From positions 1,124-65,123 of the forward strand of contig CASFNK010000006.1 of assembly GCA_949295995.1 (NCBI GenBank): a stretch of DNA of 64,000 nucleotides, written 5' to 3'. The notes under the pieces were generated by a model, which saw only the letters and a program-made list of their open reading frames with translations, did not search any database and had not been told where the DNA came from. This stretch comes from an uncultured Pseudomonadota bacterium. Its GTDB lineage: Bacteria; Pseudomonadota; Alphaproteobacteria; RF32; CAG-239. Positions 27,005 to 64,000 of this stretch are shown in pieces. Position 1 is the stretch's first letter. Each line of letters starts with the position of its first letter. The position numbers were made by a program, and so were the translations under genes.

Positions 27005-27101
27005 TATGCCCTCTTAAATCAACGGAACTTCTTAAAACTATAATCGACAGTTTATCATAAAAAAGAATAATATTTGTTTAATCTTTTATGACAAATTTTG
27101 A

Positions 27102-27701: not shown

Positions 27702-27705
27702 AATT

Positions 27706-28827: not shown

Positions 28828-28836
28828 AATAACCTC

Positions 28837-30501
28837 CTAATACGAAGGACGCTGGTCAAGCAATCCGCACCAACGCTCAACTTCATCTAAATCAATGTAA
28901 CCTTTTAACATACGTTCAATAGCGGCATCCCGAAGAGGTCTGCCATTTAAATCACTAGTCCAATAATCGATAGCTTTTCTGGTTTCCCCAGCAATCATTA
29001 ATTCTAGGAATACGGCATCAGGCAATATAATTTCAGGGACACTCATACGACCTTTGATACCTTTATTATCACAAAATTTACATCCGGGACCGCGAACGAA
29101 AGTATTTTCGACCCCAAAATCGCCCAAAGCAACACGTAATCTTTTAACCGCCGGATCATTGAGTCTTTCTTTAACGGAAACACGACAGTGAGGACAAAGT
29201 TTTCTGAATAAACGTTGAGAAATTAAACCTTTTACGAGTTCTGGATCTGCCAGCATATAAGGTTGAATACCCATGTCTCGTAAACGAGTAATAATAGCTG
29301 GAGCGCTGTTTGCGTGCAAAGTTGTCCAAACGCCGTGTCCGGAAAGAGCCCCTTTGAAGGTAAGTTCTGCCGTAGCCAAAGCACGTGTTTCACCCACCAT
29401 CATAACGTCAGGGTCAGAGCGCAAAGCGGCCGAAAGAGCTTTTGTGAACATTTCGGCTTTTTCTTCTTCACTATTGGCATTTGTTACGGGCATTTGTCTA
29501 GCGCCGGGGATTGGGTATTCGGGAGGGTCTTCCACGGTAATGAGATTAATCTCGTAATTTTTTTCTTGCAGGAGTTTAATCATATTGCGCTGTAAGGTTG
29601 TTGATTTACCCGAACCGGTAGGTCCGGCAATGACACTCAAACCTGTAGGCACGGCACGTAACCGATAGAATAGATTTTCTTCATATTCACCAAAACCGAG
29701 TGCTTGCAAATCACCACTTCCGTCAGGGTTTTCATCAGCGTAAAGCAAACGCATAACCAAATATTGAGAACCAAAAGCAATCGGATTAAATTGTAAACGA
29801 ATAGCCAACACGTTATGAGGCAACATGAGTTTACCTTTAGAACCGCGCAAAGGAGTTGAACCTAATTTTTGAGCTCCTTGGAATTCGTTTTGAGCATAGT
29901 TTGAATCGGAAATATCCGAAGAAGCAAAAGCGGCGCGGACAAAAGATTCCCCCCAATCTTTATTATATTCCATAACGGTTTGCATCATTCCGTTTACGCG
30001 AAACATAATTTGCGTACTATCCGCCACAACAACGTGTACGTCAGACACCTTCATAGCCGCTGCACGAGCAACAACATTAACGAAGTCCTTCTGCATCTGC
30101 AGTTGGTCTAAATCTTCATCTCCTTCAATATTAGAAAGAGGTTGAGCCCGTTCTCCGTAAGCATAAATTGCGTTAATTTCATTTTGACTGACATAGGTTG
30201 GTTTACTTATATTTAAGTGTTTTTTCCGAGCCAAAACTTCAAAGCTCAAAACACGTCCGTCAAATTTATGGGATTCGACTACCAAGAAACGCCCATCAGC
30301 AAACAAAGCTAACAGACGTCTTGTGTCATCATTAATAACCAGAGAAGAACCGGGCAAGGTTAGTAACTTATTACCATTACTAAACACATCTTCAATAATA
30401 TTGTACTTTTTTTGCCCATCAGCCTCAGAGGCTCCGATAACTTGTCCTGAGCCTCGACTGCTGTCATCGACAGTCTCTTCTGTTTTTTCCTCTTCAGCCA
30501 T
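28837..30501 (-). CDS. pilQ: type IV pilus assembly ATPase, GspE/PilB family (R64 PilQ position)
   Basis: Walker A AGPTGSGKST, Asp box ITVEDPPEYP, Walker B VMMVGETR, His box GHGVWTTLHA, tetracysteine motif CPHC...CKFC. Confidence 0.9.
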   Translation of the reverse strand: MAEEEKTEETVDDSSRGSGQVIGASEADGQKKYNIIEDVFSNGNKLLTLPGSSLVINDDTRRLLALFADGRFLVVESHKFDGRVLSFEVLARKKHLNISKPTYVSQNEINAIYAYGERAQPLSNIEGDEDLDQLQMQKDFVNVVARAAAMKVSDVHVVVADSTQIMFRVNGMMQTVMEYNKDWGESFVRAAFASSDISDSNYAQNEFQGAQKLGSTPLRGSKGKLMLPHNVLAIRLQFNPIAFGSQYLVMRLLYADENPDGSGDLQALGFGEYEENLFYRLRAVPTGLSVIAGPTGSGKSTTLQRNMIKLLQEKNYEINLITVEDPPEYPIPGARQMPVTNANSEEEKAEMFTKALSAALRSDPDVMMVGETRALATAELTFKGALSGHGVWTTLHANSAPAIITRLRDMGIQPYMLADPELVKGLISQRLFRKLCPHCRVSVKERLNDPAVKRLRVALGDFGVENTFVRGPGCKFCDNKGIKGRMSVPEIILPDAVFLELMIAGETRKAIDYWTSDLNGRPLRDAAIERMLKGYIDLDEVERWCGLLDQRPSY

Positions 30502-30509
30502 ATTAATAT

Positions 30510-32111
30510 TTACCTGACGAACATACCTGAACGTAAGCTAGGTAAACCTTGATTTGCGCTTAATGCGGGTAAAGCCTCTGTTTTTCCTGACTTTTTAGGT
30601 AAAGGAGTTACACCTGATTTAAAGTTTGGATTAACAGATTTAGGTTCTCTATCCAAAATACCGCCGGCTGCAAAATAGAGATATTCTTTTTTTCCGTCTT
30701 TTGAAGCCGTTAAATAAGTCTGAGATATTTCATCTACGGTATGACCTGTTTGTAGTACGGTTCCTTTTTGAACTAAGAACGAAGACCCGCTTTTATTAAT
30801 GAGTTTAGCCGATAATTCACCGCCTTTCCCGCGAATTTCCATAATAGCATACTCATCAGAAATTTTTTGACTCTTATTTTCATTTTTTTCATTATTTTCA
30901 GATAAAGATGCAAAGGGATTTGTTTTATCCTTTCCAGCTACATTAACATCAACTCGAGCTTGCTTTTCAGCTTCCAAACGAGATTTCAAAATAGAAATTT
31001 GCGTCTGCATATTTGTTAATTCACGACTATAATTTTTCTTAGCTGTTTCTGCAGCTTCAGAAGCTTTTACAGCCAGTTGCAATAAGTAGTTTAATTTTAA
31101 TTTTAGGTTATTAACTAATTTAGAATGATCTTCTTCGATTTTAGCCATTTCGTCATATAAGTTCATATTATTATCAATCCATTTTTGGTTTGTAGCCAAC
31201 ATTTCCTCTTTATAGGCTTTAATAATATTTTCCTGACGTAATTTTTCATAAATTAGATTAAGTTCTCTCAGCTTTTGCTCTTCGATAAGGAGTTTTCTTT
31301 GTTGTTCTTGCTCCCATTCAGCTTTTTTACGTTCTTTTTCTTCTTTTTGAGCTTTTGCGTCATCAATAGATTTTTGTCTTGCCGCTTTTAGGGCTTCAAT
31401 TTCATTTTTGACTTTTTCTCTGCGCAGTTCAAGGCTAAGCAAACTTGTCTGCTTTTCCAAATCAGACATTTGATTAAACAAATCATTGTCTATTTGGGAC
31501 AAAATAGCTTCTCCGAAGTTATTACTTTCGGGCGTAGTAGCTTGTTGTTTTAACAATTGTAACTGTTGAAATTTAGAAGCATTATCATTTAGTTGCTTAT
31601 TTTCAGCTTTATCACCAGAATTTTTAGCTGGAAGCAATTTATCATTAGCTAATGTTTTAGGTGCTGAAGGCGCAGACTTTGCTCCTAAAGGCTTAAGAAC
31701 GGGTTTAGACGCGTCATCTTTCTCAGGATTTGTTTGGGGTAACTTCAAATCTTGGACTGAAGGAACATTATTTTCCGTATTATCCAAAGGAATAACGCCT
31801 GGCACATTACTTTCCGTATTATCCAAAGGAATAACGCCTGGCACATTACTTTCCGTATTATCTAAAGGAATAATATCAGGAACATTATTTTCAATATTTC
31901 CGCTGTTTCCATTTAGAGAAGGTGGGGTTAATAAAGCATCGGCATTAGAAGTTTCCTTGAGAGAAATTTCATCAGGAATTAAAGGAACAACTGTCGGTGC
32001 AGTTTGTTCGGCATCTAAAGGGAGTACAGCCCATGCTACCTGATTAGGAGATAATCCAAGAATCAGAGCCATAACTGCAAAGCATAATTTGTAATTTATA
32101 TTATAAGACAT
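30510..32111 (-). CDS. PilP-position protein: signal peptide, 13-aa tandem repeats, long coiled coil, C-terminal PilP-like beta domain
   Basis: 533 aa. Repeats NVPGVIPLDNTES, a K/E-rich coiled coil, and C-terminal YAIMEIRGKGGELSAKLINKSGSSFLVQKGTVLQTGHTVDEI. The assignment rests on synteny plus the C-terminal pattern. Confidence 0.5.
   Translation of the reverse strand: MSYNINYKLCFAVMALILGLSPNQVAWAVLPLDAEQTAPTVVPLIPDEISLKETSNADALLTPPSLNGNSGNIENNVPDIIPLDNTESNVPGVIPLDNTESNVPGVIPLDNTENNVPSVQDLKLPQTNPEKDDASKPVLKPLGAKSAPSAPKTLANDKLLPAKNSGDKAENKQLNDNASKFQQLQLLKQQATTPESNNFGEAILSQIDNDLFNQMSDLEKQTSLLSLELRREKVKNEIEALKAARQKSIDDAKAQKEEKERKKAEWEQEQQRKLLIEEQKLRELNLIYEKLRQENIIKAYKEEMLATNQKWIDNNMNLYDEMAKIEEDHSKLVNNLKLKLNYLLQLAVKASEAAETAKKNYSRELTNMQTQISILKSRLEAEKQARVDVNVAGKDKTNPFASLSENNEKNENKSQKISDEYAIMEIRGKGGELSAKLINKSGSSFLVQKGTVLQTGHTVDEISQTYLTASKDGKKEYLYFAAGGILDREPKSVNPNFKSGVTPLPKKSGKTEALPALSANQGLPSLRSGMFVR
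31763..31893. repeat. 39-bp tandem repeat (about 3.3 copies) inside the PilP-position gene
   Basis: Units at 31763-31801, 31802-31840 and 31841-31879 are nearly identical (GGCACATTACTTTCCGTATTATCCAAAGGAATAACGCCT), and a partial fourth follows. Confidence 0.9.
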
Positions 32112-33378
32112 AGATTGCTCCTTCGTAATGCCATTGCTTAGAATTTACATCATATTTAATACTATTAATCTCAAGTCCTGAAAATTTTATTAATAAATCA
32201 TTCCAAACAGCCGGATTTTGAAAAGATTTAAATTGGAATTTAATTGAACGATACACATTTTTTCTGGGAGAAGTGTAAGAAAATGATTGCAAAGCAATAT
32301 CTTGACCAATTGCTTGGAACATATTATTAAGCACATTTTTCAAATCTACCCCCATATATTGAGGAGGAGAAGAAATAATATCTATTTTGTTAAAAGGCAC
32401 AGAAACAATCACAGTATTTCCGTCATCAGAAATAGATTTACCAGAAAAATTTATACCAGATTTATTTAGAGCTTTATCAATCCAGCTAATACGCCCCACC
32501 TCTCTTTTCCAAGAAGTTGTGATAGAAGAATCGCTGCAAGAAAGACCGCCGATTTTCCATCCGGGAGGAAGAATATGAGTTAGAGCATCTACCCCCATTT
32601 TACATTGAAGCATAACTTCAGAAGGATTTTTAAGTTTTTCCCAAGGTTTAATTTCAGGAGGTTGTTCCACGGGTTTAACAACTTTAGGTCGAACGGGAGC
32701 TATGATTGGTCTCTTCGGAGGCGATAAAAAGATACTGGTAACAATGCTGTACAAGAGCCATAAACCGACAATAGCGGACACAGCGACAACAGCAAATAAC
32801 TTAGAACCGCGTAGAGCTTTAATTTTTTGAAGTTTATTTTTCGTCCCTCTTTGCAAGAGTTTTGCTAAATCGGGATATTCAGTTTCTTCAATTTCCCACT
32901 CTGGAGGTGCAATTTTGCGCCCCCAGTCAGGAACAGCCAACATGGACATAAATTGGTTTTTAGCATCTTCTTCTTTTAGGAAGAGCATATCGCCATCTGA
33001 AAGGATAATATCATTACGTACGCAAGTGTACCACCATCCTTCTTTCACCTTGAATACACCGACAAAAGAAGAACGATCGGAAAGAGCCGTTGATAAAGAA
33101 ACGGCAGCAGCTAACGTACCATTTTTATATCCTTCTTGGGAAACACAAATACCGAACTGAGGAGCTTTACCTGGTTTGATACAAAAAAGGTCAGCCCCTT
33201 CTAATACGCCGCCGGCGGTTTCTTCTACTTCCGTATAAGGATCATCTTTATTCTGTAAAGGCTGCCAAAACAAACTTGTAGCGTAAGTAATCCCTTCCAG
33301 AGAAAACTCCGTAGCCCACGAACGATTAACATTCGTGTCAAAATCTTGTTCTTGAAATTTAGCATCTTCCAGAACCAT
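32101..33378 (-). CDS. PilO-position bitopic membrane protein (R64-type PilO)
   Basis: 425 aa with a single central TM (LFAVVAVSAIVGLWLLYSIVTSIFL). Size and position match R64 PilO as I recall it. No diagnostic motif known to me. Confidence 0.5.
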   Translation of the reverse strand: MVLEDAKFQEQDFDTNVNRSWATEFSLEGITYATSLFWQPLQNKDDPYTEVEETAGGVLEGADLFCIKPGKAPQFGICVSQEGYKNGTLAAAVSLSTALSDRSSFVGVFKVKEGWWYTCVRNDIILSDGDMLFLKEEDAKNQFMSMLAVPDWGRKIAPPEWEIEETEYPDLAKLLQRGTKNKLQKIKALRGSKLFAVVAVSAIVGLWLLYSIVTSIFLSPPKRPIIAPVRPKVVKPVEQPPEIKPWEKLKNPSEVMLQCKMGVDALTHILPPGWKIGGLSCSDSSITTSWKREVGRISWIDKALNKSGINFSGKSISDDGNTVIVSVPFNKIDIISSPPQYMGVDLKNVLNNMFQAIGQDIALQSFSYTSPRKNVYRSIKFQFKSFQNPAVWNDLLIKFSGLEINSIKYDVNSKQWHYEGAIYVL

Positions 33379-33390
33379 TTTAATAATTCC

Positions 33391-35010
33391 TTATTCTTTC
33401 ATTCTCGATTCGGGTGATAATGGGGATTCCAAGACCACAGGAGTCAAAATAATAACCAAGAGGCTTCTTACTTTTCCAGCTTTAGCTGTACCGCCCAATA
33501 ATGAATTTTCAGCGGAGCCGACACCTGATTTTTCGGTCGTATTTTCAACTCTTTCATATCCGGTTAAGACCAATGATTGTCCTGATTTCATTGCTACTTC
33601 TTGAGTAAAGCCGCGAGATTCTATGACCGGATTTTGAATATATTGTCCCCCTCCCGCACTTGTTTCACCGTCAGCTCTGTCATCCAAACTGACTTTTTCC
33701 AAAGAAATTAAATCAGATAGTGTCAAGTTGAACATCAACATCAAACGACCATGTTCCAAAATTCTCGGTAAAACGTCCATAGTAAAACCTGTTTCAATCT
33801 CTTCAGTTTCGGTAGAAACGTCGTAGTAACTTGCATCACCGCCGCTGTTTGTTTTGGTGATTTCAGAAATATAGTTTTGGGTCTTAACTACTTGAATCGG
33901 AGCAGGTTTATTATTTAATGTTGTAACTGTACCGCTTGTAATTAAATTGGTCGTAGCTTGAGTTGATAGAGCTTGTAAAGAAGCGTCTATCGAAACATTT
34001 CCGGGCAAGAGAGTCATAGTTAAGTTTTTGGTAACGTCTTGACCCAACCCGCCGGCAATACTTGATAACCCGACAGATTCACCGGTATGATCTTTCCAAA
34101 TAGCAGACAAATCAAGACCATATTGATCACTATCATCAATACTAACTTGCAAAACTTTTATACTGATAGCGACTTGTCGAGATAAACGGACATTTTGTTC
34201 ATTTATAAATTTTGCAATTTTCTTAATATCGTTCGGTGTAGCAGTAACCGAAATAGTACCATTTGAGGGATCCATGGTATATTTAGAATCTTTATCTAAC
34301 ATATTTTTAATAGAGGTTTCGATATTTTTCCAAAAATCCATTTTTGCACCGCTGGTCAATGAAATTTGTGAAGAACCGCCGGAACCTTGAGATGAACCAC
34401 CGACATTGACCGAAACTTGAGGAGAAGTCGGCAAGCTATACAGAACAAAGGTTCTTGTTTGGTATTTGTAAAAATATATTTCTTTTCGGTCATATTTCCA
34501 CCAAATACCAAAACGAGATCCGATTTCATTTAACAAACCGCTTAAAGGCCCTTGATAAGAAACAAGCATTTTGCTTGGGTCAGTCCAATCGACATTAATA
34601 GAAGCGGCATCAGGTTTATTTTTTGCCGCATTAGATAATACGTCTTTTTCCAAATGTGTTGCATAACTAACGCGCAGCCCGGTAATTTTGTTAATCATAT
34701 CACCGATTTCATATAAAGTAATCGGACGATTACTAATTAAAGTGATACCGTCTTTCCCTTCCAGATATGCGGGAATTGGCTGTCCGTCATATTCAACCTG
34801 ACTTGTATCGCCGAGCCAAATATCATTTTTAACACGAACAACATCGTCGTTAAGTACTTTGTCAGGAATTTTAGCGACTTCTTTTAATTTAGTAGTAGCT
34901 TCGACCTCGCGCTCAACCGTTGTATCCATTTTGGTTGATAAAGAACAAGAGCCGGCAATCACAAGTAATAATGCGCCTAAGCTGTATTTAGTAATTTTAT
35001 TCATAAGCAT
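33391..35010 (-). CDS. pilN: type IVb pilus secretin lipoprotein (R64 PilN family)
   Basis: Lipobox VIAGSC. C-terminal secretin domain (...SLVLTGYERVEN...GVGSAENSLLGGTAKAGKVRSLLVIILTPVVL). Start chosen at the ATG at 35010 (GGAGG 6 nt upstream). Confidence 0.85.
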   Translation of the reverse strand: MLMNKITKYSLGALLLVIAGSCSLSTKMDTTVEREVEATTKLKEVAKIPDKVLNDDVVRVKNDIWLGDTSQVEYDGQPIPAYLEGKDGITLISNRPITLYEIGDMINKITGLRVSYATHLEKDVLSNAAKNKPDAASINVDWTDPSKMLVSYQGPLSGLLNEIGSRFGIWWKYDRKEIYFYKYQTRTFVLYSLPTSPQVSVNVGGSSQGSGGSSQISLTSGAKMDFWKNIETSIKNMLDKDSKYTMDPSNGTISVTATPNDIKKIAKFINEQNVRLSRQVAISIKVLQVSIDDSDQYGLDLSAIWKDHTGESVGLSSIAGGLGQDVTKNLTMTLLPGNVSIDASLQALSTQATTNLITSGTVTTLNNKPAPIQVVKTQNYISEITKTNSGGDASYYDVSTETEEIETGFTMDVLPRILEHGRLMLMFNLTLSDLISLEKVSLDDRADGETSAGGGQYIQNPVIESRGFTQEVAMKSGQSLVLTGYERVENTTEKSGVGSAENSLLGGTAKAGKVRSLLVIILTPVVLESPLSPESRMKE

Positions 35011-35662
35011 TCTCATCCTCCATGGTCTCAACAACTAAGACGCGGTTTCCTTTATAAAAAGTAGCAATCGGAGCAGGTGTTGCGCGAGCAAAAGCTCTGA
35101 TAAGCGCAGCACTGACATCTGCAAAACGACCTCTAAACATTGCTCCGGCAGTTAAAGTATAATTACGATTTGAGTTCCAAATTAATCTCCATCCGGCTCT
35201 TTCACTCCATTCTGTCAAAAGGGCCTTAAGAGTTTGTCCTTCTTCTGCGAGCCAATCTTCAACAGGGTCTTCTGCGTTATATTCGGAACCAGCGTTTGAA
35301 GAGTTTCCTGATGTTTCACTAATTTCTTGTTCATAATCGATAACTTCACTCTCTACTGTTGGAGGAACGGCAGCCGAAATATTGCTTCCGGCGCCGCCGT
35401 CAACAATATTTTGATCTCTTGGAGTTCTCTCTCCGTATTCTTTATAATCGGCAGCAACTTCTGTATAATTAACAAATTCACTGTCTTGAAGAGAACCATT
35501 CGGCTGCAAAACATTATTTGCATCAGTACAAACTCTATTACCGTTTTCATCACATTCAACGGTTTCAGGGGGTATATGAACAGGATGGTATAAGGTGCCT
35601 AAACATCCTGAGGTAAGAAATAATCCCAATAATCCGGTAATTAACCGAAGCTTTATGCGCAT
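34997..35662 (-). CDS. pilL: PilL-like lipoprotein with a TcpQ-like C-terminal domain
   Basis: Signal peptide and lipobox MRIKLRLITGLLGLFLTSGC (start at the ATG at 35662). The C-terminus reads WLAEEGQTLKALLTEWSERAGWRLIWNSNRNYTL...FRGRFADVSAALIRAF...NRVLVV, typical of PilL/TcpQ. Confidence 0.75.
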   Translation of the reverse strand: MRIKLRLITGLLGLFLTSGCLGTLYHPVHIPPETVECDENGNRVCTDANNVLQPNGSLQDSEFVNYTEVAADYKEYGERTPRDQNIVDGGAGSNISAAVPPTVESEVIDYEQEISETSGNSSNAGSEYNAEDPVEDWLAEEGQTLKALLTEWSERAGWRLIWNSNRNYTLTAGAMFRGRFADVSAALIRAFARATPAPIATFYKGNRVLVVETMEDENAYE

Positions 35663-35756
35663 AATTTTAATTCCTAAGCTATGTTTTGTCATTTTTTACC
35701 TATAATACATATTGAAAAATAAATAATCAAGCGTAAGGCTCAACTTATTACCAAGG

Positions 35757-54665: not shown

Positions 54666-55400
54666 ATGGATAATCGTCTGGAAGGAAATAACGCGCAGCA
54701 ACGGCTTATTGGGCGGCAGGCACAACCGCAGCAAACGGTTAGGTCTCGCACCACGGAAGATGTTTTTGTTGCCAATGTTGGAGAGAAAAGGTATTTATGG
54801 ACGGCTCGTGCTTTTGCTGTCATTACGGCAATAAGTTTATGCTGTAATATAGTTCTGTTTTTGGCAATAGTTCAGGTAATGCCGTTATTTCGCATAGAAC
54901 CGTTTTTATTGACATTTCAGGCGAAGGGTGAACAAGTTTATAACATAGTTCCGGTAAGAGGAAATCTAGCGGATGAAAAGGCAATAACGGAAGTTTTTGT
55001 GAGGGAGTATGTCTTGCAAAGGAGTTCGTTTGACCGAGATATTCCGGAAATGGAGGCGCGTTGGATGCCGGGAGGTCCGATACAAGAAATGTCATCTCCC
55101 GCAGTATATCAAGAATTTTTAAATAAAACGGCTAAAAGGGCGATAGAATTGATAAGAGCCAAGAGTTTACAAAGGAATGTTCGTATATTAACTGTTAACG
55201 AATTGGGACAAGGGCTCTGGCAAGTTGAATATGAAACGCAAGATATGTACCCGGATTCAGTTAAACCAGAAATAAATTATTGGACGGCATCACTTCGTGT
55301 CAGTTATGTAAGAAAGAGAGTTAAATACGGAGAGCGGTTGAATAATCCGGTAGGATTTACGGTAGATAGGTATTCTTTGTCATTAAATAGGGTTCAATAG
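54666..55400 (+). CDS. virB8: VirB8-like T4SS protein, copy b
   Basis: TM FAVITAISLCCNIVLFLAIV. C-terminal NNPVGFTVDRYSLS. Colinear with copy a (EPFLLTF vs EPFLIIN; YWTASLRVSY vs YWTASVTAFF). Confidence 0.8.
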   Translation: MDNRLEGNNAQQRLIGRQAQPQQTVRSRTTEDVFVANVGEKRYLWTARAFAVITAISLCCNIVLFLAIVQVMPLFRIEPFLLTFQAKGEQVYNIVPVRGNLADEKAITEVFVREYVLQRSSFDRDIPEMEARWMPGGPIQEMSSPAVYQEFLNKTAKRAIELIRAKSLQRNVRILTVNELGQGLWQVEYETQDMYPDSVKPEINYWTASLRVSYVRKRVKYGERLNNPVGFTVDRYSLSLNRVQ

Positions 55401-55420: not shown

Positions 55421-57061
55421 ATGATTTTGAAAGTTGGCAAATTTTTAATAATAGGAGCGATTGCGATAATAATGAGTCGCAATGTTTATGCGCAAGCCAC
55501 AATGGGAAGTTTAGATCAAAATGCCGACCAAAGTCAGGGACAATATATGCCGATGAATTTAGGTTATGCCGGTTTTAATTCTTTGGGAATGACACAGGCG
55601 GCCTGGTTAGATCCGCTCCAAAATCTGGGAGAAGGACAAAGCAAGCCGGCATATTCCAAATATTATTGGTCTCCGGATTTGATATTACCGATACGCCTTC
55701 GTGAAGGAATGATAACTTTGCTTAATTTTCCGGATTGGGAATTAATTGAAGATATGTACATAGGAGACAATGCGACATTTGATGGTCAAATATCTGGTCC
55801 AAATACGATTTTATTATATCCGCGCAAAGGGGCAAATGTCGGGGTGGATACCAATATCATTATTTTTGGACGTTCAGGGAACAAATATGTTTTTTATGTA
55901 AAGAGCGAAGGAGTAAATACGGAGCGATTGACGAATTCCATCATTGATATTGATGTGATTGACGGTCCTTCCGGCTCAAGAGGGGCCGGTCTGGCAGGAG
56001 GAAGTGTAGGAGGAGGCTCGGGAGTTAATGCTTCAACTTATAAAGCCAATAATTCTCATTCGGCAGATTCTCTTTTTACAAAAAGTTTCCAACGAAGCGA
56101 TTGGATAAAAGAAATCCCTGTTGACCCGAGTAAATTTCGTTTTGATATAGAAGTTTATGTTCCCAATCCGGATGATGTGGTTATTGCACCGGAAAGAGTA
56201 TGGAGAGATGATATTTTCACCTATATTGATTTTGGTGAAAAGGCCTTAAATATGACACAACGTCCGATAGTTACGCTAATTGTAGAAAGAATAGAGGTTC
56301 CGGTAGGGTTTAGAACCAAGGGTCCAAATAATCGTCTGATAATAGTAGAAGGTATAGGTGATATGGTTTTACGGAACGGCAAGCGAATAGTTTGTTTAAA
56401 GATGCGTCGTTCAGATGATGCCGGATTAGAAAATGCGACTTATGCAACGGATTTTGAGGATTCTACATGGGATGTTCCGCAACCTATTCCTGGAGGCACA
56501 ATGCGTCCGACCGGAGGAACGGGTAGTAATAGTGAATTTAATTCTTCGGCAAACGGAATGCCTGGTCAATATGACATTCAGGTCGGACAAAGCGAGATAG
56601 TTGTTCCTCGCTATGGGAATAATATGGCAAACGGCGGCAATAGCAATGGAGTAACAATAGGTTTCCAACCACCTAATGACGGATATGATTATTCAAAAAT
56701 GCAACATATAAAGAATAATAACCAATATTCGGGTACAGTTAGCCCGCAAGGAGGAAATAAGAGCGGGTATGGTTTCGGATCAGGATTTGTAGGTGCGGAT
56801 AGCTCGAATATTTCAATAGAGTTGGGAACGGATGCTAATGTCTCAAATCTTGAAAATTTGTGGAGTGAGCTTTCTAAAAAATATCCGGATGTATTGAGTC
56901 GCTATGAGCCGTTTTTCTCAGTAGATGCGCCGGCGGATGGACAGGGGAAAGAACTGTTTCACTTGCGTGTTGGACCGGTTAAAAGTTTAGAATCAGGAGA
57001 CAACGTCTGTAGTCGTTTAGGACGTAACGGGGTATTTTGTAGCGTAGTAAGGACGCAATGA
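55421..57061 (+). CDS. virB9: VirB9/TrbG-like T4SS outer-membrane core protein with a C-terminal SPOR-like domain
   Basis: Signal peptide. VirB9 N-domain pattern (ILPIRLREGMITLLNFPDWELIEDMYIGD...NTILLYPRK...TNIIIFGRSGNKYVFYV). VirB9 C-domain (APERVWRDDIFTYIDFGE...IVCLKMR). The last ~85 aa are SPOR-like (ISIELGTDANVSNLENLWSEL...LFHLRVGPVKSLESGDNVCSRLGRNGVFCSVV). Confidence 0.75.
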   Translation: MILKVGKFLIIGAIAIIMSRNVYAQATMGSLDQNADQSQGQYMPMNLGYAGFNSLGMTQAAWLDPLQNLGEGQSKPAYSKYYWSPDLILPIRLREGMITLLNFPDWELIEDMYIGDNATFDGQISGPNTILLYPRKGANVGVDTNIIIFGRSGNKYVFYVKSEGVNTERLTNSIIDIDVIDGPSGSRGAGLAGGSVGGGSGVNASTYKANNSHSADSLFTKSFQRSDWIKEIPVDPSKFRFDIEVYVPNPDDVVIAPERVWRDDIFTYIDFGEKALNMTQRPIVTLIVERIEVPVGFRTKGPNNRLIIVEGIGDMVLRNGKRIVCLKMRRSDDAGLENATYATDFEDSTWDVPQPIPGGTMRPTGGTGSNSEFNSSANGMPGQYDIQVGQSEIVVPRYGNNMANGGNSNGVTIGFQPPNDGYDYSKMQHIKNNNQYSGTVSPQGGNKSGYGFGSGFVGADSSNISIELGTDANVSNLENLWSELSKKYPDVLSRYEPFFSVDAPADGQGKELFHLRVGPVKSLESGDNVCSRLGRNGVFCSVVRTQ

Positions 57062-60000
57062 GCAAAGAAGTACTAACACATTCGGAAAGTTACATAAAAA
57101 AAACCAACCGCATAATTTTTGTGGTTGGTCTTACCTCTTTTGTAATTTTTGTATTAGGAGTAATGCTTTTATTGCAAAGTGGTCCTGTTGAGAATGAATA
57201 TACGGAACCAGTATTTACGACCAATGATGATGCGTTAAATATAAGTATGGATACGGGACCAAGCAACAATATAGAGTTTGGCGTTTTAGAAGATGGCGAA
57301 CCCCCGATAACAACAACACCCAATCCAGTACAAATGGGTCAAGTTGTTTTAGGAACAGATGCAAAGAATGTTTTAACCATAGGAACCAACGCAAAAGCGG
57401 CAATAAAAATTGTATCGGTGCAGCTTGCGGAGCCGCCGTTTGATGGCTTTACGTTTAAGGATGATTGTACGGACAAAGAATTACGAGGTCATGAAACTTG
57501 TGATATTACGATGGGTTGGACGCCGATTGTTCCTGGAAATGTTCAAAATAACTTCATAATCACCTGGCATGAATCGAATTTAACGACGGCCAATGCAAAA
57601 TCAGCAAAAGTTCCGGTCGAAGGTAACGCGATACGCAAAGAAGATTGTAATTTTTGTGAACAAGTTCCGACCGACAGCGCTAAAACGAGTAGCGGACAAG
57701 AAGCAAAGGGTCTTCACACAAGGAACGCAATAGGACCTAATGGTGAAATAATAGGTACGATAGATGAAGAAGGCTATGTTAGAGATGCCAACGGCAATAT
57801 CATAGGAAGAGCCAATTCAGCCGGAATGATAGTAGATGAAAACGGCAATGTAATAGGCGTAGGAGAAAATCGACGTTTGGTATATGATGCCAACGGTAAT
57901 GTTATTGGCTACGTCAACCCGGATGGGAGTGTCGTTGACTTGAATGGCAATGTCATTGGCAGAGTACTACCTGATGGCACGGTTGTAGATATGGATGGTA
58001 ATGTTATAGGAAAAGCTGTAGATGCAGGTTTTGTCTATGATGAAAATGGCAATATCATAGGACGAGTATTGCCTGACGGCACGGTTGTAGATATGAATGG
58101 GAATGTAATCGGTCGCCTAAATGAGAAGGGAGAAGTAGTAGATGCCAACGGCAACATAATTGGTCGAGTAAGCAAACAAGGTCGTGTAGCCGTAGATGAA
58201 AAAGGTAATGTTATAGGCGTTGTGATGCCGGATGGTACGGTTGTTGATAAAAACGGAAATATAGTCGGTCAAGTTGACGAAAATGGCAAAGTTGTTGGTA
58301 AAAATGTATTGGGCAATGCTGGTGGTTCAGCAACTTTGGCATATGATAAGAATGGGAAAGTAATAGGTTTTGTTGATGCCAACGGAAATGTTATAGATGA
58401 AAATGGCAATATCATAGGAAAAAAAGATGCCAATGGAAATATAGTAGATGAAAACGGCAATATTATCGGGAAATCAGCCACAGTTGCGCAAAGACGTTTG
58501 GCGTATGATAAAGACGGTAATGTAATCGGTTATGTAGATGAAAACGGAAATGTTGTTGATTTTAATGGCAATATCATAGGTAAGGTACTACCTGATGGTA
58601 CGATAGTTGATGCCGAAGGAAATGTTATAGGTCGAGCAGCCAATGTTCCAGGACGAAGACTTGTTTATGATAAAGACGGCAATGTGATAGGCTATGTTGA
58701 TGAAGATGGTAATGTACGGGATGCTAATGGAAATATTATAGGTCGGGTATTACCGGACGGAACGGTTGTTGATAATAACGGCAATGTCATAGGAAAAGTT
58801 GCCGATATGAATATCGGTGCGCAAAGACGGCTGGCTTACGACAAAGACGGCAATATCATAGGTTATATTGATGAAAATGGAAATGTCGTTGATTTTAACG
58901 GTAATATCATAGGAAAAATGCTTGATGACGGGACATTGGTTGATTTAGAAGGAAATGTTATAGGAAAAGCCGGAGAAGTAGTTAATCTTGTTTTGGATAA
59001 AGACGGCAAAGTTATAGGTTATGTTGATGCCAATGGAAAAGTGTTTGATTTAAAAGGCAATGAAATAGGCTATGTAGATGAAAACGGCAATATAGTGAGT
59101 TCCCAAGATAAAACTCTAGGTGCATTGGTTCAAACCCGAATGATACCGATTACGCCCAAGGGAACGGTTTTGGGAAAATTAAATAATGATGGTACGGTAG
59201 TAAAAGACAGCAAAATTGTTGGTAGAGTTTTAGCCAATGGTTTGGTTCGAGATCCTGCAGGTTCAGAAGTTGTTGCAAAATTAGTAAGGGGAGGATTGGT
59301 TGTCGGTTACGGATGTAAAAATATCGGTTATTTAGATTCTGACGGGAAGATAAAAAAAGGTAATACGGAAACAAAATTAAAGCCACTTCCGGACGGCTTA
59401 ATAGTAGATGCAGAAAATAATTATGTCGGAGAAGTCATAAGAACGGGAAAAGTATTTGATAATAATTGTACCTATATAGGAGATGTTGGGACGGATGGGA
59501 CGGTTCGCACATCAGAAGGAGTTTACATTGGTTGTGTCAATCCAGACGGAACGGTTCTGAGTGAGAAGGGAGAAGTTATAGGCAGTGTTGTTCGCAATGG
59601 AGTTGCTTTAGCTTATGATGGAGAATATTTAGGGCAAGTTTCCGCAGATGGTCTGGTTATAGCACTTTCACAGCTTCCTGTAGGTTGCGTAGGTATTTAC
59701 GGAGATGTGTTCAATAAAGACGGAGCCTATATCGGTCGAGTTTTAGAGCAGACGAATGCTTATGATTTACATGGAAATTTTTTGAATTTGGTAGGACCCA
59801 ATGGTCGAATAGCCATCAGTGGTCAGTCTGATGCCAAACTTTATGCCAATAATTTGGTAGCAAACGACCGCAACGAGATTATAGGTGTGTTAATGGATGA
59901 AAAATCAACCATAATTTCACCAGAAGGTAACTTTAAGGGGCGTCTTTTTCCTAACGGAGAAATTTACGATTCCAAGGGGAGTGCAATAGGTCATCTTCAT

Positions 60001-60981
60001 GGAGATGGAATGAATTTTTATAATTCAGCAATAGGAAACACGGTCAAAAAAGGATTTGTTTCAGATTTTGAGGGGAAAACAATAGGGCAAGTTACGTATG
60101 ACGGGCAAGTTATAACGCGCTTTGGTGAAAATTTAGGTCGAATTGACGCAAAAGGGAATTTTATAGATAATAAGGGAGTTTATCGAGGCAGCGTAATTTC
60201 CAGAGGAAGTGCCATAGGTTATGACGGGTCATTTTTAGGCTATTCTACAACAGACGGAACGGTTATCAGCATGGAAGGAAACAAAGTCGGAATGACAAGT
60301 TCTGATGGAAAAGTTGTTGATATAAAAGGTACGGTAATTGGAGAAGTAATTCCCGAAAACATAGTTGTTGATATTTGGGGCAACTACAAAGGTCGAGTAA
60401 ATTCGGTCGGAGACGTAATCGATTTGAAAGATGAAGTAATAACAGCGGTTCTTCCAGGTGGTTCGACGGATAAAAATTTAAGTTTGTTACGCCGAGGAAC
60501 GGTAATAGATTTTGGAGGAAACACGATAGGAGCAGTTTTACCGAATGGTCAAGTTATAGATAAAGAAAACGTTGTTATAGGACGAGTATTATCGGATGGA
60601 AATGTAATCAGCGCGTCAGGAAAATTAATAGGGGAAGTTGTTCATGGCGATATAGTTATTGATAACTCGGATAAAGTAGTAGGCTATGTAAATTTTGATG
60701 GTAAAATCAGAGACAAAGAAGGTAGCCTTATCGGTCGCGCTATTTCTGGTGATTTGGCAATAGATACCAATGATAATATTATTGGAAAAATTTATAAAAT
60801 AGGAGCCACGATTTTAGGAAATGACGGAAACTATGTTGGTCGTTTAAGTGCGGAAGGTATAGTTCAAGACAGAGAAGGCAAAAATGTAGGTTATCTTAAA
60901 AATAACGGTTCATACATAAATTTGGATAAGAAAGTTGCAGGCTACGCTTTGCAGGAAGTAGCAAAGAACCGGAGGAACTGA
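57058..60981 (+). CDS. 1307-aa membrane-anchored protein made of ~10-residue D-x-x-G-N-[VI]-[IV]-G repeats (virB10 position)
   Basis: Its ATG overlaps the virB9 stop (ATGA). N-terminal TM IIFVVGLTSFVIFVLGVMLLL. A ~150-aa non-repeat region is followed by more than 1000 aa of repeats, e.g. VVDMDGNVIGKAVDAGFVYDENGNIIGRVLPDGTVVDMNGNVIGRL. No VirB10/TrbI-like C-terminus seen. Confidence 0.7.
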   Translation: MSKEVLTHSESYIKKTNRIIFVVGLTSFVIFVLGVMLLLQSGPVENEYTEPVFTTNDDALNISMDTGPSNNIEFGVLEDGEPPITTTPNPVQMGQVVLGTDAKNVLTIGTNAKAAIKIVSVQLAEPPFDGFTFKDDCTDKELRGHETCDITMGWTPIVPGNVQNNFIITWHESNLTTANAKSAKVPVEGNAIRKEDCNFCEQVPTDSAKTSSGQEAKGLHTRNAIGPNGEIIGTIDEEGYVRDANGNIIGRANSAGMIVDENGNVIGVGENRRLVYDANGNVIGYVNPDGSVVDLNGNVIGRVLPDGTVVDMDGNVIGKAVDAGFVYDENGNIIGRVLPDGTVVDMNGNVIGRLNEKGEVVDANGNIIGRVSKQGRVAVDEKGNVIGVVMPDGTVVDKNGNIVGQVDENGKVVGKNVLGNAGGSATLAYDKNGKVIGFVDANGNVIDENGNIIGKKDANGNIVDENGNIIGKSATVAQRRLAYDKDGNVIGYVDENGNVVDFNGNIIGKVLPDGTIVDAEGNVIGRAANVPGRRLVYDKDGNVIGYVDEDGNVRDANGNIIGRVLPDGTVVDNNGNVIGKVADMNIGAQRRLAYDKDGNIIGYIDENGNVVDFNGNIIGKMLDDGTLVDLEGNVIGKAGEVVNLVLDKDGKVIGYVDANGKVFDLKGNEIGYVDENGNIVSSQDKTLGALVQTRMIPITPKGTVLGKLNNDGTVVKDSKIVGRVLANGLVRDPAGSEVVAKLVRGGLVVGYGCKNIGYLDSDGKIKKGNTETKLKPLPDGLIVDAENNYVGEVIRTGKVFDNNCTYIGDVGTDGTVRTSEGVYIGCVNPDGTVLSEKGEVIGSVVRNGVALAYDGEYLGQVSADGLVIALSQLPVGCVGIYGDVFNKDGAYIGRVLEQTNAYDLHGNFLNLVGPNGRIAISGQSDAKLYANNLVANDRNEIIGVLMDEKSTIISPEGNFKGRLFPNGEIYDSKGSAIGHLHGDGMNFYNSAIGNTVKKGFVSDFEGKTIGQVTYDGQVITRFGENLGRIDAKGNFIDNKGVYRGSVISRGSAIGYDGSFLGYSTTDGTVISMEGNKVGMTSSDGKVVDIKGTVIGEVIPENIVVDIWGNYKGRVNSVGDVIDLKDEVITAVLPGGSTDKNLSLLRRGTVIDFGGNTIGAVLPNGQVIDKENVVIGRVLSDGNVISASGKLIGEVVHGDIVIDNSDKVVGYVNFDGKIRDKEGSLIGRAISGDLAIDTNDNIIGKIYKIGATILGNDGNYVGRLSAEGIVQDREGKNVGYLKNNGSYINLDKKVAGYALQEVAKNRRN

Positions 60982-60982
60982 G

Positions 60983-63900
60983 TTGGGACTGGGAAAAACA
61001 AAAAATAAATACTGTGCCAGGACACTAAAGTTTATTAATATTCTGTTTGGAATATTAATATTTAGCTTTAATGCACAAGCTCAAGAGATTACGGCGGTTG
61101 ATTTTAACGGGGATTTGATAGGAAAAGTAATTCCCGATGGTAAAGTAGTTAGTTTTGATAACCAACTTATCGGCAATGTAACGGCAGATAGTTTGATATT
61201 AAATTTCGACGGAGAAATCATCGGAGGAGTTATTCCTCAAGGTATAGCGATTGGCAATGATAATAAGCCGTTAGGTAAAGTCAATAACGATGGATCCGTT
61301 CGTCTTCCATCTGGAAAAATAATAGCTAAAGTATTGCCGAACGGTTTAGTTTTGGATGAGTATTTTAATGTTATTGGCTCAGTTTTGTTTCCGGGGCTTG
61401 TTTATTCTGATGACGGGAAAACAGTGGGACGTTTAACCGGAGATGGCTTATATACCAATTTGCAAGGACAAGCGATAGGTTTTGTATCTCCGGATGGCTA
61501 TGCATACCGCAAAGTTGGACAAGATTATATTTTAGATGGACGTCTGATTTCTTCCAAAATGGTAGTATCGTTACGAGGTGAATTTATCGGCAGTGTAGCC
61601 CCTGGAGGAAATGTTACAAATTTTGAAGCACAAACCATAGGCTATGTCAAAGCCAATGGTTTTGTGTATGATAAGGATAATCAAATTATCGGTAGTATAG
61701 TTCGTTCAGGCTATGCTTTGGATAATTCTGGTAAATATTTAGGTTTTGTAACCTATAACGGCGAAGTTGTTGACAAGAACAATATAGTCGGACGAGTTCA
61801 GGCAGATGAAAATATTATCAACGAACAGGGCGACATAATAGGCTCGGTTGTAGATTTTTCAGCGACGGCAACGGATTTAAATGGTAAATATTTAGGTCGA
61901 GTTGTTCCGCAAGGAAAAGTAAGAAAGACGAAAGAAGATATTGGCCAAGTCGGGAACAGAGGTGTAATTTTGTCTTCAGACGGAACGCTGATAGGTAAGA
62001 TTATCAAAACCGGTCCTGTATTTGACTATCGAGGCAGTCTGAAAGGTCATGCCTCAAAGAATGGTTCAATAGTAACCATGGAAGGAACTCCGGCAGGTTA
62101 TATAATGGACAATATGGCTTATGAAAATACCGGACGAGCCATAGGTGCAACTATGAAAAATCTGTTAGCAATTAGTTCGAATAATAGCCCGCTGGGAGTT
62201 GTAGGAATCAGCGGTTCGGTAATGGATGGAGAAGAAAAAAAATATATGTCTCCGTTTGGGTATCTTTTCTCAGCAGATGGGAAAGTAGTAGGGGTAGGCT
62301 TAAGTTTATCTTCCGTATATAACATTACGGGAACTCCGGTAGCTCAAATAATGCCTAACGGACAGCTAACCAATAAAAATGTTCAGTCATTGGGAAAATT
62401 AACCCAATCAGGATTTAATATAGATGAGCGAAATTTAATAATCGGAAAAAATCTCGATAATGGATATTTTGTAGATTCCCAAGGGAATTCAATCGGATTA
62501 TTAAATAACAGTAATCTTGTGCAGAAGCGAGATGGCAGCATTTTGGGTAAATATATTCCAGACGGTTCGGTTGTTGCATCGCAAGATAATACCTCAGTAA
62601 ATATGATGCCACAGCAAGGAACGGGACGAACAGCTTCACTGGCGATGTCTTTTAATGGTCGTTTAGTTGGCTATGCCAACAATTTAGGAATAGTCAAAGA
62701 TTTTGGCGGTTCAAATCTAGGAAAAATCACGTCAGAAGCAATTTTGCTAGATAATACTGGTTCAGCCATAGGCGGTGTAATAGACTATGAAACGGCCATA
62801 GACGATAAATGCTCTTTTTTAGGAGTTATCACCTCACGCGGAGAAGTTAGGAACTATCGAGAAACGGTTATGGGGCGTTCCTTGCTGAATGGGCAAGTTA
62901 TATCGGAAAATGGGAGCTATATAGGTTACAGTGTTAAGCCGACGGCAGTAATAGATTATAATGGTAATGTGATAGGAACAGTATCAAGCAATGGACAAGT
63001 TTTAAATTATAATAATAACATTTTAGGATGTATAGATAAACGCGGTTTTCTAAAAAGCGATGAAGGTATTTCCCTGGCTCATACTATAGAATATTATCCT
63101 GTTATGAGCTTTAACGGCGTAATTTTAGGTCGCAGTGTTTTAGATGGTCAAGTAGTTAATTCAGAAAACCAATTTATAGGATATACACAAGCTAACGGCA
63201 ATGTTAATTCCAAAACGGGCTCGCCAATCGGACATTTATTAAAATACCGCTATGCCTTTAGTTTGGCCAATAAATATATAGGTAGAATCACCGGTGATGG
63301 AAATGTTATAGATGGTTCCGGCAATAATATAGGAAAAATTGATTTTGAAGGGAATGTTATAAAAGACAATTACAAAATTGGTTATGCGCTTTATGACTTT
63401 TATATTTACGATAATGATTTTGAGGTTATAGGCGTTATCCAAAAAGACGGTAATGTTCTGTCTTTTGTGAATCAGAATTTAGGTCATTTAAGCAGAGGTT
63501 TTCTGCTTGATAAAAATGATGAGGTAAAAGGCAGAGGGAATAGGGATTTTTATATAAGAGACGATTCCAACCGTATTTTGGGAGAATTAACTCTAAAGGG
63601 AGAGTTAAAAGATATAAACAACAATATATTAGGCACGATTACTAAAAACGGCAATATTATAGATTCCAATGGGCGTGTAGTAGCAGTTGCAAAACCGTTA
63701 CAATATTATGGAGAGATAGTAGAAAGAGAAAAGGTATTTGACGTAAATGGCAATCTATTAGGCTATGTGAATGCAGACGGAACTGTAACTGATGACAAAG
63801 GCAATATAATCGGTTCGGTACAAAATGGAAAAGTTGTAGATGCAAAGGGTAATGAAATCGGAGAATTGGCAAGTACGAAGATTGCCTATGATGCAAATGG

Positions 63901-64000
63901 AAATGTAATAGGAAAAGTTCTTCCTGACGGCAGTGTTATAGACGGTTCGGGTAAAATAATAGGCAAAGTAGGAACAAACGGAGCAATCGTGGATGCCAAT
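60983..64000 (+). CDS. second giant decapeptide-repeat protein, 5' partial (at least 1006 codons, runs off the right edge)
   Basis: Absent from the ORF track (no stop in the window). TTG at 60983 lies 6 nt after GGAGGA (60971-60976) and 2 nt after the upstream stop. Product starts M-GLGKTKNKYCARTLKFINILFGILIFSFNAQAQEITAVDFNGDLIGKVIPDGKVV.... The same repeat type is still in frame at the last codons (GTNGAIVDAN). Confidence 0.7.
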   Translation, partial: MGLGKTKNKYCARTLKFINILFGILIFSFNAQAQEITAVDFNGDLIGKVIPDGKVVSFDNQLIGNVTADSLILNFDGEIIGGVIPQGIAIGNDNKPLGKVNNDGSVRLPSGKIIAKVLPNGLVLDEYFNVIGSVLFPGLVYSDDGKTVGRLTGDGLYTNLQGQAIGFVSPDGYAYRKVGQDYILDGRLISSKMVVSLRGEFIGSVAPGGNVTNFEAQTIGYVKANGFVYDKDNQIIGSIVRSGYALDNSGKYLGFVTYNGEVVDKNNIVGRVQADENIINEQGDIIGSVVDFSATATDLNGKYLGRVVPQGKVRKTKEDIGQVGNRGVILSSDGTLIGKIIKTGPVFDYRGSLKGHASKNGSIVTMEGTPAGYIMDNMAYENTGRAIGATMKNLLAISSNNSPLGVVGISGSVMDGEEKKYMSPFGYLFSADGKVVGVGLSLSSVYNITGTPVAQIMPNGQLTNKNVQSLGKLTQSGFNIDERNLIIGKNLDNGYFVDSQGNSIGLLNNSNLVQKRDGSILGKYIPDGSVVASQDNTSVNMMPQQGTGRTASLAMSFNGRLVGYANNLGIVKDFGGSNLGKITSEAILLDNTGSAIGGVIDYETAIDDKCSFLGVITSRGEVRNYRETVMGRSLLNGQVISENGSYIGYSVKPTAVIDYNGNVIGTVSSNGQVLNYNNNILGCIDKRGFLKSDEGISLAHTIEYYPVMSFNGVILGRSVLDGQVVNSENQFIGYTQANGNVNSKTGSPIGHLLKYRYAFSLANKYIGRITGDGNVIDGSGNNIGKIDFEGNVIKDNYKIGYALYDFYIYDNDFEVIGVIQKDGNVLSFVNQNLGHLSRGFLLDKNDEVKGRGNRDFYIRDDSNRILGELTLKGELKDINNNILGTITKNGNIIDSNGRVVAVAKPLQYYGEIVEREKVFDVNGNLLGYVNADGTVTDDKGNIIGSVQNGKVVDAKGNEIGELASTKIAYDANGNVIGKVLPDGSVIDGSGKIIGKVGTNGAIVDAN

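Follow-up and report, generated by a model that had tools for sequence, protein, structure and literature searches.

The virB10 position of the locus

We analysed a 64,000-nucleotide (nt) stretch of contig CASFNK010000006.1 (assembly GCA_949295995.1) from an uncultured alphaproteobacterium; this whole stretch is called the window in the following. It carries a locus for a type IV secretion system (T4SS), in which virB9 is followed, in the position of virB10, by two giant repeat genes, here called ORF1 and ORF2 (open reading frames 1 and 2). Their features are as follows.

57058..60981 (+): ORF1, 1307 amino acids, putative inner-membrane-anchored N-terminal half of a split VirB10 (ORF list, Pfam, fused relatives)
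57058..57177 (+): cytoplasmic tail of ORF1 with the motif SESYIKKTNR, then a single transmembrane helix (amino acids ~18-40; predicted helix 8-40)
57307..57633 (+): predicted periplasmic immunoglobulin-like (Ig-like) beta-sandwich of ORF1, ASH/PapD-like, amino acids 84-192
57721..60942 (+): predicted beta-hairpin array of ORF1, beta-flower type, amino acids ~222-1295, ~63 units (period 17, structure prediction)
58333..59127 (+): length-variable cassette of ORF1, amino acids ~426-690, regular repeats, holding three units of 54-57 amino acids
60940..60981 (+): near-invariant C-terminal tail of ORF1, GYALQEVAKNRRN, with the stop codon (sequence reading, orthologues)
60983..64000 (+): ORF2, codons 1-1006 of 1520, putative Sec-exported C-terminal half, open to the window edge
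60983..61081 (+): predicted signal peptide of ORF2, amino acids 1-33, with ...FNAQA before and QEITAVDFNG after the cleavage site (orthologue comparison)
61082..64000 (+): window part of the predicted beta-hairpin array of ORF2, amino acids 34 to ~1015 in full (period 17)

The ATG of ORF1 and the stop codon of virB9 share an ATGA overlap. ORF1 stops at the TGA of 60979-60981, and ORF2 starts 2 nt further on at the TTG of 60983, with a ribosome-binding site (GGAGG, 60971-60975) that sits in the RR codons of the ORF1 tail. These two gene models had been proposed from the letters of the window alone (hereafter the sequence-only reading), and they are reproduced in independent assemblies. A look-up of the exact ORF1 sequence returned no record; records of the virB9 protein exist for ten metagenome contigs, six of which we took (L001-L006; DNA identity to the window 99.3-99.9% over the shared stretch). 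L001-L003 are full length and run beyond the window end, and both gene models are the same there, free of frame breaks; L005 and L006 are partial and agree over their partial stretch. The exception is L004, in which a 179-nt deletion within the Ig-like domain of ORF1 (window 57354-57532; L004:3231/3232) breaks the frame into 104 and 1051 amino acids. This deletion is either a genuine loss-of-function variant or an assembly error. We rejected a change in repeat number as the cause of the shorter ORF1, because the deletion is out of frame and lies in the Ig-like domain.

The complete ORF2, read from L002:15563-20125, has 1520 amino acids. It is laid out as ~1000 residues of repeat, a Gly/Pro-rich linker and then a VirB10 barrel domain, with two or three further hairpins at amino acids 1058-1100 that bring the total to ~60 units. 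Amino acids 1208-1399, which are encoded ~0.6-1.2 kb past the window edge, match the Pfam family TrbI (PF03743) over profile positions 2-187 of 188 (E-value 2.7e-32, 112.6 bits, cut-off 35). Compared with solved structures, the C-terminal domain matches H. pylori ComB10 (2bhv, 7.4e-19) and CagY (8cb2, E-value 2e-6), and TraF, TrwE and VirB10 too; ORF2 also matches the NCBIfam models of ComB10 and VirB10. The barrel domain includes a segment of hydrophobic helix, acidic loop and helix, which is antenna-like by eye only. A VirB11-type ATPase of 322 amino acids is encoded 12 nt 3' of ORF2, followed by a gene on the opposite strand (L001-L003), and no virB10 other than ORF2 lies between virB9 and virB11. 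The sequence-only reading had found no recognisable VirB10 here. Within the window this is correct, but beyond it ORF2 ends in TrbI, so the virB10 slot is not empty. It had also proposed to look downstream for such a domain and for virB11, and both are found, which supports its idea of an extended, periplasm-spanning T4SS component of the DotG kind.

Behind the VirB10 domain, ORF2 has a variable Ser/Thr/Pro-rich C-terminal tail (L002:19760-20125). In most relatives the end of this tail is aromatic, commonly ...P-x-L-F, and resembles the C-terminal signals of outer-membrane proteins.

ORF1 has no TrbI domain. Its N-terminal anchor is uncleaved and VirB10-like, and there is no secretion signal. 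The cytoplasmic motif is kept as S-E-x-Y-[VI]-[KR]-K-T-N-R in the split orthologues and occurs as variants (e.g., SSSEQYVKKSNR) in most of the fused relatives described below, so that S-E-x-Y-[VI]-K-K-[TS]-N-R is recognisable in split and fused forms alike. An AlphaFold2 model of amino acids 1-700, built with 23 homologues, consists of a transmembrane helix (8-40), a disordered stretch, a beta-sandwich (84-192) and, from residue 220, alternating strands of 5 and 3 residues. The beta-sandwich is predicted with a local confidence (pLDDT, predicted local distance difference test) of ~65-85 in 10-residue blocks. With the 700-amino-acid model as query, Foldseek matched the Ig-like domain alone; this domain finds 6fvi and 2e6j (E-value ~1e-6, TM-score on the target 0.61-0.68), and its Pfam ASH match is weak. 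A sequence search of the PDB with ORF1 as query gave no match.

The repeat and its fold

The sequence-only reading had given the repeat a period of ~10 residues. Residue-identity autocorrelation revises this value: the maxima fall at lag 17 and at multiples of it (z = 22.7 for ORF1 and 14.9 for ORF2, versus shuffles), with half-units of 10 and 7-8 residues combined in one period. The repeat unit is one 10+7 hairpin, D-x-x-G-N-V-I-G-x-V-x-x-D-G-x-V-V, rich in Gly, Asn and Asp. Both proteins match the Pfam family Bflower_2 (PF21785; ORF1: E-value 2.3e-82, 272.7 bits; window part of ORF2: E-value 7.1e-62, 206.6 bits; cut-off 38). The other two beta-flower/DUF3659 families, PF21784 (in clan CL0395 with PF21785) and PF12396, score 153.6 bits (cut-off 24.8) and 137.2 bits (cut-off 25) with ORF1, and 70.3 and 93.2 bits with the window part of ORF2. 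The PF21785 matches of ORF1 form 12 stretches, suggesting an array of ~12 modules.

AlphaFold models led in 2023 to the naming of the beta-flower, a fold in which 8, 10 or 12 short strands form a shallow barrel and the hairpin "petals" have a [DNEQ]xxG tip; it had no PDB counterpart at that time, and no function is known for it (PMC10584680). The same [DNEQ]xxG hairpin-tip motif is present in the repeat of ORF1 and ORF2. An AlphaFold2 model of ORF1 amino acids 222-415 (pLDDT 87.7, predicted TM-score 0.72) has 22 short alternating strands, and from such models we infer that the hairpins would close into beta-flower barrels. The likeness to the described families (PF21784, PF21785 and DUF3659, PF12396) extends from matches far above the cut-offs to the [DNEQ]xxG turn and the short antiparallel strands. 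The beta-flowers in the literature, however, are single domains of only ~70-115 residues (PMC10584680), whereas here about a dozen module-lengths are found per chain, in two chains, within a secretion subunit. The sequence-only reading was right that the repeat is neither an RTX nonapeptide nor a pentapeptide repeat and right to suspect DUF3659; its view of an unclassified repeat gives way to the Pfam beta-flower/DUF3659 assignment.

Other repeat families were considered and rejected. RTX nonapeptides (GGxGxDxUx, period 9) and pentapeptide repeats (A(D/N)LxX, period 5) disagree with the period of 17, and neither gives a Pfam match. YD repeats are ~20-22 residues long. PF05593 (YD repeat) reaches an E-value of 3.7e-25 for the whole protein, with no individual stretch significant. 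Foldseek found no solved counterpart of the repeat block (amino acids 222-415); its best matches are the Rhs/teneurin YD shells (RhsA, Tse15, teneurins), at TM-scores of 0.11-0.13, a root-mean-square deviation of ~15-21 A and a probability of at most 0.33. An RHS/YD-repeat cocoon was therefore rejected, since the similarity is one of local hairpins (TM-score ~0.12) and the period is 17.

Three higher-order units start at amino acids 479, 533 and 590 of ORF1 (nt 58492, 58654 and 58825), with spacings of 54 and 57 amino acids. They are 72-84% identical as protein and 68-76% as DNA, and ~45% of the identical residues differ in codon. Tandem Repeats Finder reports no DNA-level tandem repeat in 57000-64000. 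The synonymous divergence of these units, first remarked in the sequence-only reading, is thus borne out, as is its point that selection keeps the repeat as protein, and a recent DNA duplication or a switching like that of CagY is unsupported. The best alignment of ORF1 with ORF2 is full-length and colinear (26.5% identity, E-value 6e-80). Because two repeat arrays of equal length align colinearly anyway, a duplication of the whole array is unproven. No charge complementarity was seen between the ORF1 and ORF2 arrays.

Conservation of the split, single-chain relatives and interpretation

We scanned one genome per GTDB species with an alignment of the VirB10 domain as query and found relatives of this domain in 277 GTDB genomes; the locus comparisons were made on the best 80 of the 277. 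All of these 80 are uncultured Alphaproteobacteria of human, chicken, mouse and ruminant guts, and they bear labels such as Candidatus Scatocola, CAG:495 and, for some metagenome-assembled genomes (MAGs), "uncultured Azospirillum." In ~70 of them an ORF of 1068-1574 amino acids lies immediately 5' of a VirB10 ORF of 1420-2366 amino acids, in the order virB8-virB8-virB9-ORF1-ORF2-virB11. The linkage to virB9, which the sequence-only reading had wanted surveyed, is general: where a related locus reaches far enough upstream, virB9 lies, almost without exception, immediately 5' of the ORF1 homologue.

Of 71 ORF1 orthologues, 54 end in exactly LQEVAKNRRN; the others are one residue off (two in one case). 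ORF2 starts 0-6 nt after ORF1 in most loci, and the apparent overlaps stem from the choice of the first in-frame start. All 75 ORF2 orthologues compared have the features of a signal peptide: a basic n-region, a hydrophobic core, A/S/G at -1 and A/V/L/T/S/I at -3. These features make the ORF2 N-terminus a canonical Sec signal peptide, complete with a site for signal peptidase I. The signal peptide being cleavable, the outer half is predicted to be exported separately, without an inner-membrane anchor. The mature N-terminus that follows, QEITA[IV][DN]F[ND]G, is near-invariant in the 75 orthologues.

Could the split reflect an assembly error, or the decay of a single virB10 into a pseudogene through a nonsense or frameshift mutation? 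Single-chain relatives exist, as described below, and L004 has a frame-breaking deletion in ORF1. Against this, all 75 orthologues, which come from independent projects, keep the stop codon, ribosome-binding site, start and complete signal peptide with its canonical cleavage site. Both new termini rank with the best-conserved parts of the proteins, and the three full-length independent assemblies give identical models. We give a lesion or error practically no credence.

The arrays are colinear at ~100% occupancy in 72 ORF1 and 74 ORF2 orthologues (median protein lengths 1143 and 1511 amino acids), save for one cassette each. In ORF1 all large insertions fall at amino acids 469-685, and ~70% of the orthologues have nothing aligned to amino acids 426-575, where the first two higher-order units lie. 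The ORF2 cassette spans amino acids ~913-1030 (from nt 63719) and takes all the large insertions of this protein, at amino acids 913-1029; occupancy is ~100% for amino acids 26-900. Large deletions, too, are confined to the two cassettes. Outside the cassettes the individualised repeats are kept one-to-one across species, so that positional conservation covers ~85% of each array. Conservation is highest in the VirB10 domain and at the start of mature ORF2, where ~170 residues are 74-85% identical to those of the window protein; in ORF1 it is highest at amino acids 226-400 and in the tail.

This pattern bears on the possibility of a CagY-like surface fibre for target contact or immune evasion, formed by the arrays or just by their cassettes, with a repeat number tuned by recombination. 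Each protein has one hot spot, protein lengths vary between species (ORF1 1068-1574, ORF2 1420-2366 amino acids), and CagY and DotG are precedents of variable repeats in VirB10 homologues (PMC6761968). The default location of the arrays is the periplasm, however, because they follow an anchor or a Sec signal peptide and precede the barrel. The missing DNA tandem repeats and the ~45% of differing codons make rapid recombinational switching unlikely, repeat number is constant in independent assemblies of the same population, and the arrays, ~85% conserved by position, do not resemble a surface under antigenic variation. We consider a surface fibre decidedly unlikely.

A distant metagenome relative, L007, has one ORF of 2700 codons with an ORF1-like tail, transmembrane segment and Ig-like region, repeats and TrbI, and ORF1 aligns with the first ~1300 residues of this ORF. 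Because the L007 ORF contains a scaffold gap, we searched 1.84 billion representative proteins for gap-free fusions with ORF1 amino acids 1-220. At least 13 representatives of 1930-2363 amino acids bear the ORF1 N-terminus at residues 1-205. All four that were scanned have beta-flower repeats and, near the C-terminus, TrbI. Sequence comparison thus gives at least four single-chain relatives, and probably 13 or more. A single N-terminal transmembrane segment is found in 12 of the 13; the exception, P0262, has a second hydrophobic stretch at 1308-1326. The split-end motifs EITA and AKNRRN occur in none of the 13. A further protein, P0051, is cut by a contig end and has no bearing on fusion.

The single chains also bear on whether ORF1 stands outside the machine, as a co-transcribed adhesin or a secreted substrate that shares the repeat of VirB10; the sequence-only reading had offered this as its alternative. 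ORF1 does lack TrbI, and the repeat family also occurs in proteins unrelated to T4SSs (PMC10584680). Yet the anchor of ORF1 is uncleaved and VirB10-like rather than a secretion signal, its first 205 residues head single chains that end, where checked, in TrbI, and it is coupled to virB9 by the ATGA overlap and to ORF2 at 0-6 nt in ~70 species. ORF1 length and repeat order are conserved as well. An adhesin or substrate therefore seems very improbable, and this alternative is set aside.

The junction between the two genes was read directly. If GYALQE of ORF1 is joined to ITAVDFNG of ORF2, ten residues lie from the half-unit G to the next D, which means that the 17-residue register is unbroken across the junction. 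Such a pseudo-fusion aligns over the junction to the fused arrays with only 1-2 gaps. The split point itself cannot be mapped onto the fused proteins, as the repeats align in many registers, and the preserved register alone is demonstrable. The split looks like an insertion, within one hairpin, of a tail, a stop codon, a ribosome-binding site and a signal peptide.

VirB10 is a single chain that bridges the inner and outer membranes and relays an energy-dependent signal from the inner-membrane ATPases to the outer-membrane pore. As far as sequence comparison goes, the domain architecture, the identity of TrbI and the single-chain relatives are established. It is equally established that the split, the two new termini and the array length are conserved throughout the lineage, and that length changes are confined to a single cassette in each protein. 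We think it likely that ORF1 and ORF2 are together one VirB10 of ~2800 residues and ~120 beta-flower/DUF3659 hairpins, split into two translationally coupled genes and acting as a periplasmic scaffold between the membranes. The two would thus be halves of one split gene rather than the two parallel giant proteins of the sequence-only reading. ORF1 would retain a VirB10-type tail and transmembrane helix and add, in the periplasm, an Ig-like domain and ~63 hairpins; by analogy with VirB10 in the VirB/D4, pKM101 and R388 systems, its tail would contact the inner-membrane ATPases, and the C-terminal domain of ORF2 would join VirB9 and a VirB7-like lipoprotein in the outer-membrane core complex. 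The structure models suggest that the arrays are strings of small beta-flower modules, which may fill the periplasm as a large scaffold or sleeve between the membrane complexes. This scaffold might form in a multi-copy ring, as VirB10 does in characterised systems, with the ORF1 and ORF2 halves held together non-covalently. From conservation and register, it is tempting to hypothesize a hairpin formed in trans, with AGYAL, the final strand of ORF1, paired to ITAV, the strand that opens mature ORF2.

Several points weigh against this reading. Neither virD4 nor virB6 is found in the window or in the 1.6 kb beyond it. The fused ORF of L007 contains the scaffold gap, a weakness that the gap-free fused proteins cover. 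The RRN of the ORF1 tail is perhaps conserved merely as the code for the ORF2 ribosome-binding site.

A bolder proposal, which we hold to be rather unlikely as a whole, is that coupling works in two pieces: the hairpin is completed in trans, the halves are assembled separately and possibly engaged and released, and beta-flower arrays are a reusable block for megadalton sleeves in VirB10, DotG and CpaB. The split lineage offers a natural test of whether VirB10 must be one covalent chain to couple the two membranes. To our knowledge these appear to be the largest VirB10-family assemblies, with ~2800 residues per protomer pair; the single chains have 1930-2363 residues (~2680 in L007). Automatic annotation labels the pieces "TrbI/VirB10 family protein," "DUF3659 domain-containing protein" or "5-fold beta-flower protein," and we found no study of them. 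Nothing relevant was found in the literature on the T4SS of this gut lineage, on DUF3659 or on a split VirB10. The families are known, and a giant VirB10 of two polypeptides is an arrangement for which we found no description in the literature searched. The hosts form a widespread lineage of uncultured human and animal gut Alphaproteobacteria, for whose conserved chromosomal T4SS no study is known to us.

Comparable systems and the surrounding genes

The pair shares with the VirB10/TrbI proteins (Agrobacterium tumefaciens VirB10, pKM101 TraF, R388 TrwE, H. pylori ComB10) the C-terminal TrbI barrel, the gene position between virB9 and virB11, and a short cytoplasmic tail with one transmembrane helix, here on ORF1. 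It differs in being ~seven times longer, with ~120 hairpins and an Ig-like domain in place of the Pro-rich periplasmic linker. Anchor and barrel are on two polypeptides, whereas the single-chain bridge is matched by the pair or by the fused relatives. H. pylori CagY is likewise a giant VirB10 homologue (~1900 amino acids) with large repeat regions that change in number. The repeats of CagY are of a different type. Unlike the present pair, CagY is one chain that changes by DNA recombination within strains; here DNA-diverged beta-hairpins are stable between assemblies.

Legionella DotG/IcmE is similar in having a transmembrane anchor, a long variable repeat region and a C-terminal TrbI domain, and its repeat region varies in length between species (PMC6761968). 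It has pentapeptide repeats and belongs to a type IVB system, in contrast to the split protein of a VirB-type locus here (VirB2, 3, 4, 7, 8, 9, 11). An assignment to DotG/IcmE of type IVB was rejected, as the Dot/Icm context is absent from this VirB-type locus and there is no pentapeptide match in Pfam. The rvh T4SS of Rickettsiales is also alphaproteobacterial, chromosomal, vertically inherited and VirB-type, with a duplicated virB8 beside virB9-virB10-virB11 (PMC2653234). Nothing similar to the arrangement here is described for RvhB10 in PMC2653234, and the likeness is one of locus layout only.

A beta-flower repeat between membrane anchor and C-terminal domain is also found in DotG/IcmE proteins of 700-890 amino acids. 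In a Dot/Icm locus such a DotG is encoded directly behind dotI and dotH (P0178; L091:8001-10217, 738 amino acids), with beta-flower repeats where Legionella DotG has pentapeptide repeats. Similar beta-flower DotG proteins occur in other MAGs, one of them (P0188) labelled Gammaproteobacteria. In Gilvimarinus, Flp-pilus CpaB/RcpC proteins of ~785-833 amino acids (P0165, P0168, P0177) have a beta-flower array between the SAF and RcpC domains. Together with Legionella DotG and CagY (PMC6761968), these cases support the view that VirB10-type bridges repeatedly gain periplasmic repeat arrays, and suggest that beta-flower arrays are one reusable solution. Their placement in three kinds of envelope-spanning machines gives the beta-flower repeat a first concrete biological setting.

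Upstream of the two repeat genes the window contains the following.

55421..57061 (+): VirB9/CagX homologue (Pfam CagX, 2.6e-11), with a C-terminal SPOR domain at amino acids 465-544 (E-value 5.8e-06)
53596..55400 (+): virB8 paralogue, VirB7-like lipoprotein and second virB8 paralogue (Pfam VirB8, 2.7e-17 and 4.8e-21)
54469-54657: the VirB7-like lipoprotein, 62 amino acids, lipobox LLSSC, flanked by the two virB8 genes

The VirB9/CagX homologue would be the expected outer-membrane partner of the VirB10 domain of ORF2, and the 62-amino-acid lipoprotein, judged from its lipobox and position, is likely VirB7. SPOR is a peptidoglycan-binding module, here at the C-terminus of VirB9, and we know of no SPOR domain in other VirB9 proteins. 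Since this domain adjoins the arrays, we also weighed the idea that the arrays chiefly bind the cell wall, fixing a large machine in peptidoglycan rather than bridging the membranes. The annotation behind this idea is second-hand, and the strict conservation of array length and of the new termini would be left unexplained. Moreover, cell-wall binding is compatible with a scaffold and no exclusive alternative to it. As a replacement for the split, membrane-bridging VirB10 we regard it as unlikely.

The upstream order of the locus is two VirB2/TrbC genes, a protein of 1013 amino acids, a VirB3-sized ORF, VirB4, four secreted proteins and the virB8-lipoprotein-virB8 group. The first 12 kb of the window hold cmk, rpsA and rsmE, and in relatives flagellar genes follow virB11, which places the locus on the chromosome. 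As it is kept across the entire lineage, it is not a recently acquired conjugative element.

The two VirB2/TrbC pilin genes (E-values 1.7e-9 and 3.6e-6) open the segment at window 38048-41969. The 1013-amino-acid protein behind them is partly coiled-coil-looking, with a weak central TrbC-like hydrophobic hairpin (E-value 0.0017), and may be a giant pilin-like fusion. The four successive proteins between virB4 and virB8 (622, 280, 470 and 1540 amino acids; window 44941-53580) are in the expected place of virB5/virB6. They have signal-peptide-like hydrophobic N-termini by eye and no convincing family match. The matches of the 622-amino-acid protein to coiled-coil families are all sub-threshold, and at least one of the four is coiled-coil-rich.

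On the minus strand, divergent from the T4SS locus, 26042-37700 holds a complete-looking type IVb pilus cluster with a PilN-family secretin, TcpQ, PilO, a T2SSE ATPase, T2SSF, a bundlin-like pilin and a second ATPase. Elsewhere in the window (21908-24183 and 3895-7305) are a Ser/Thr protein kinase beside a PP2C phosphatase and an AIDA/Ag43-type autotransporter of 1136 amino acids.

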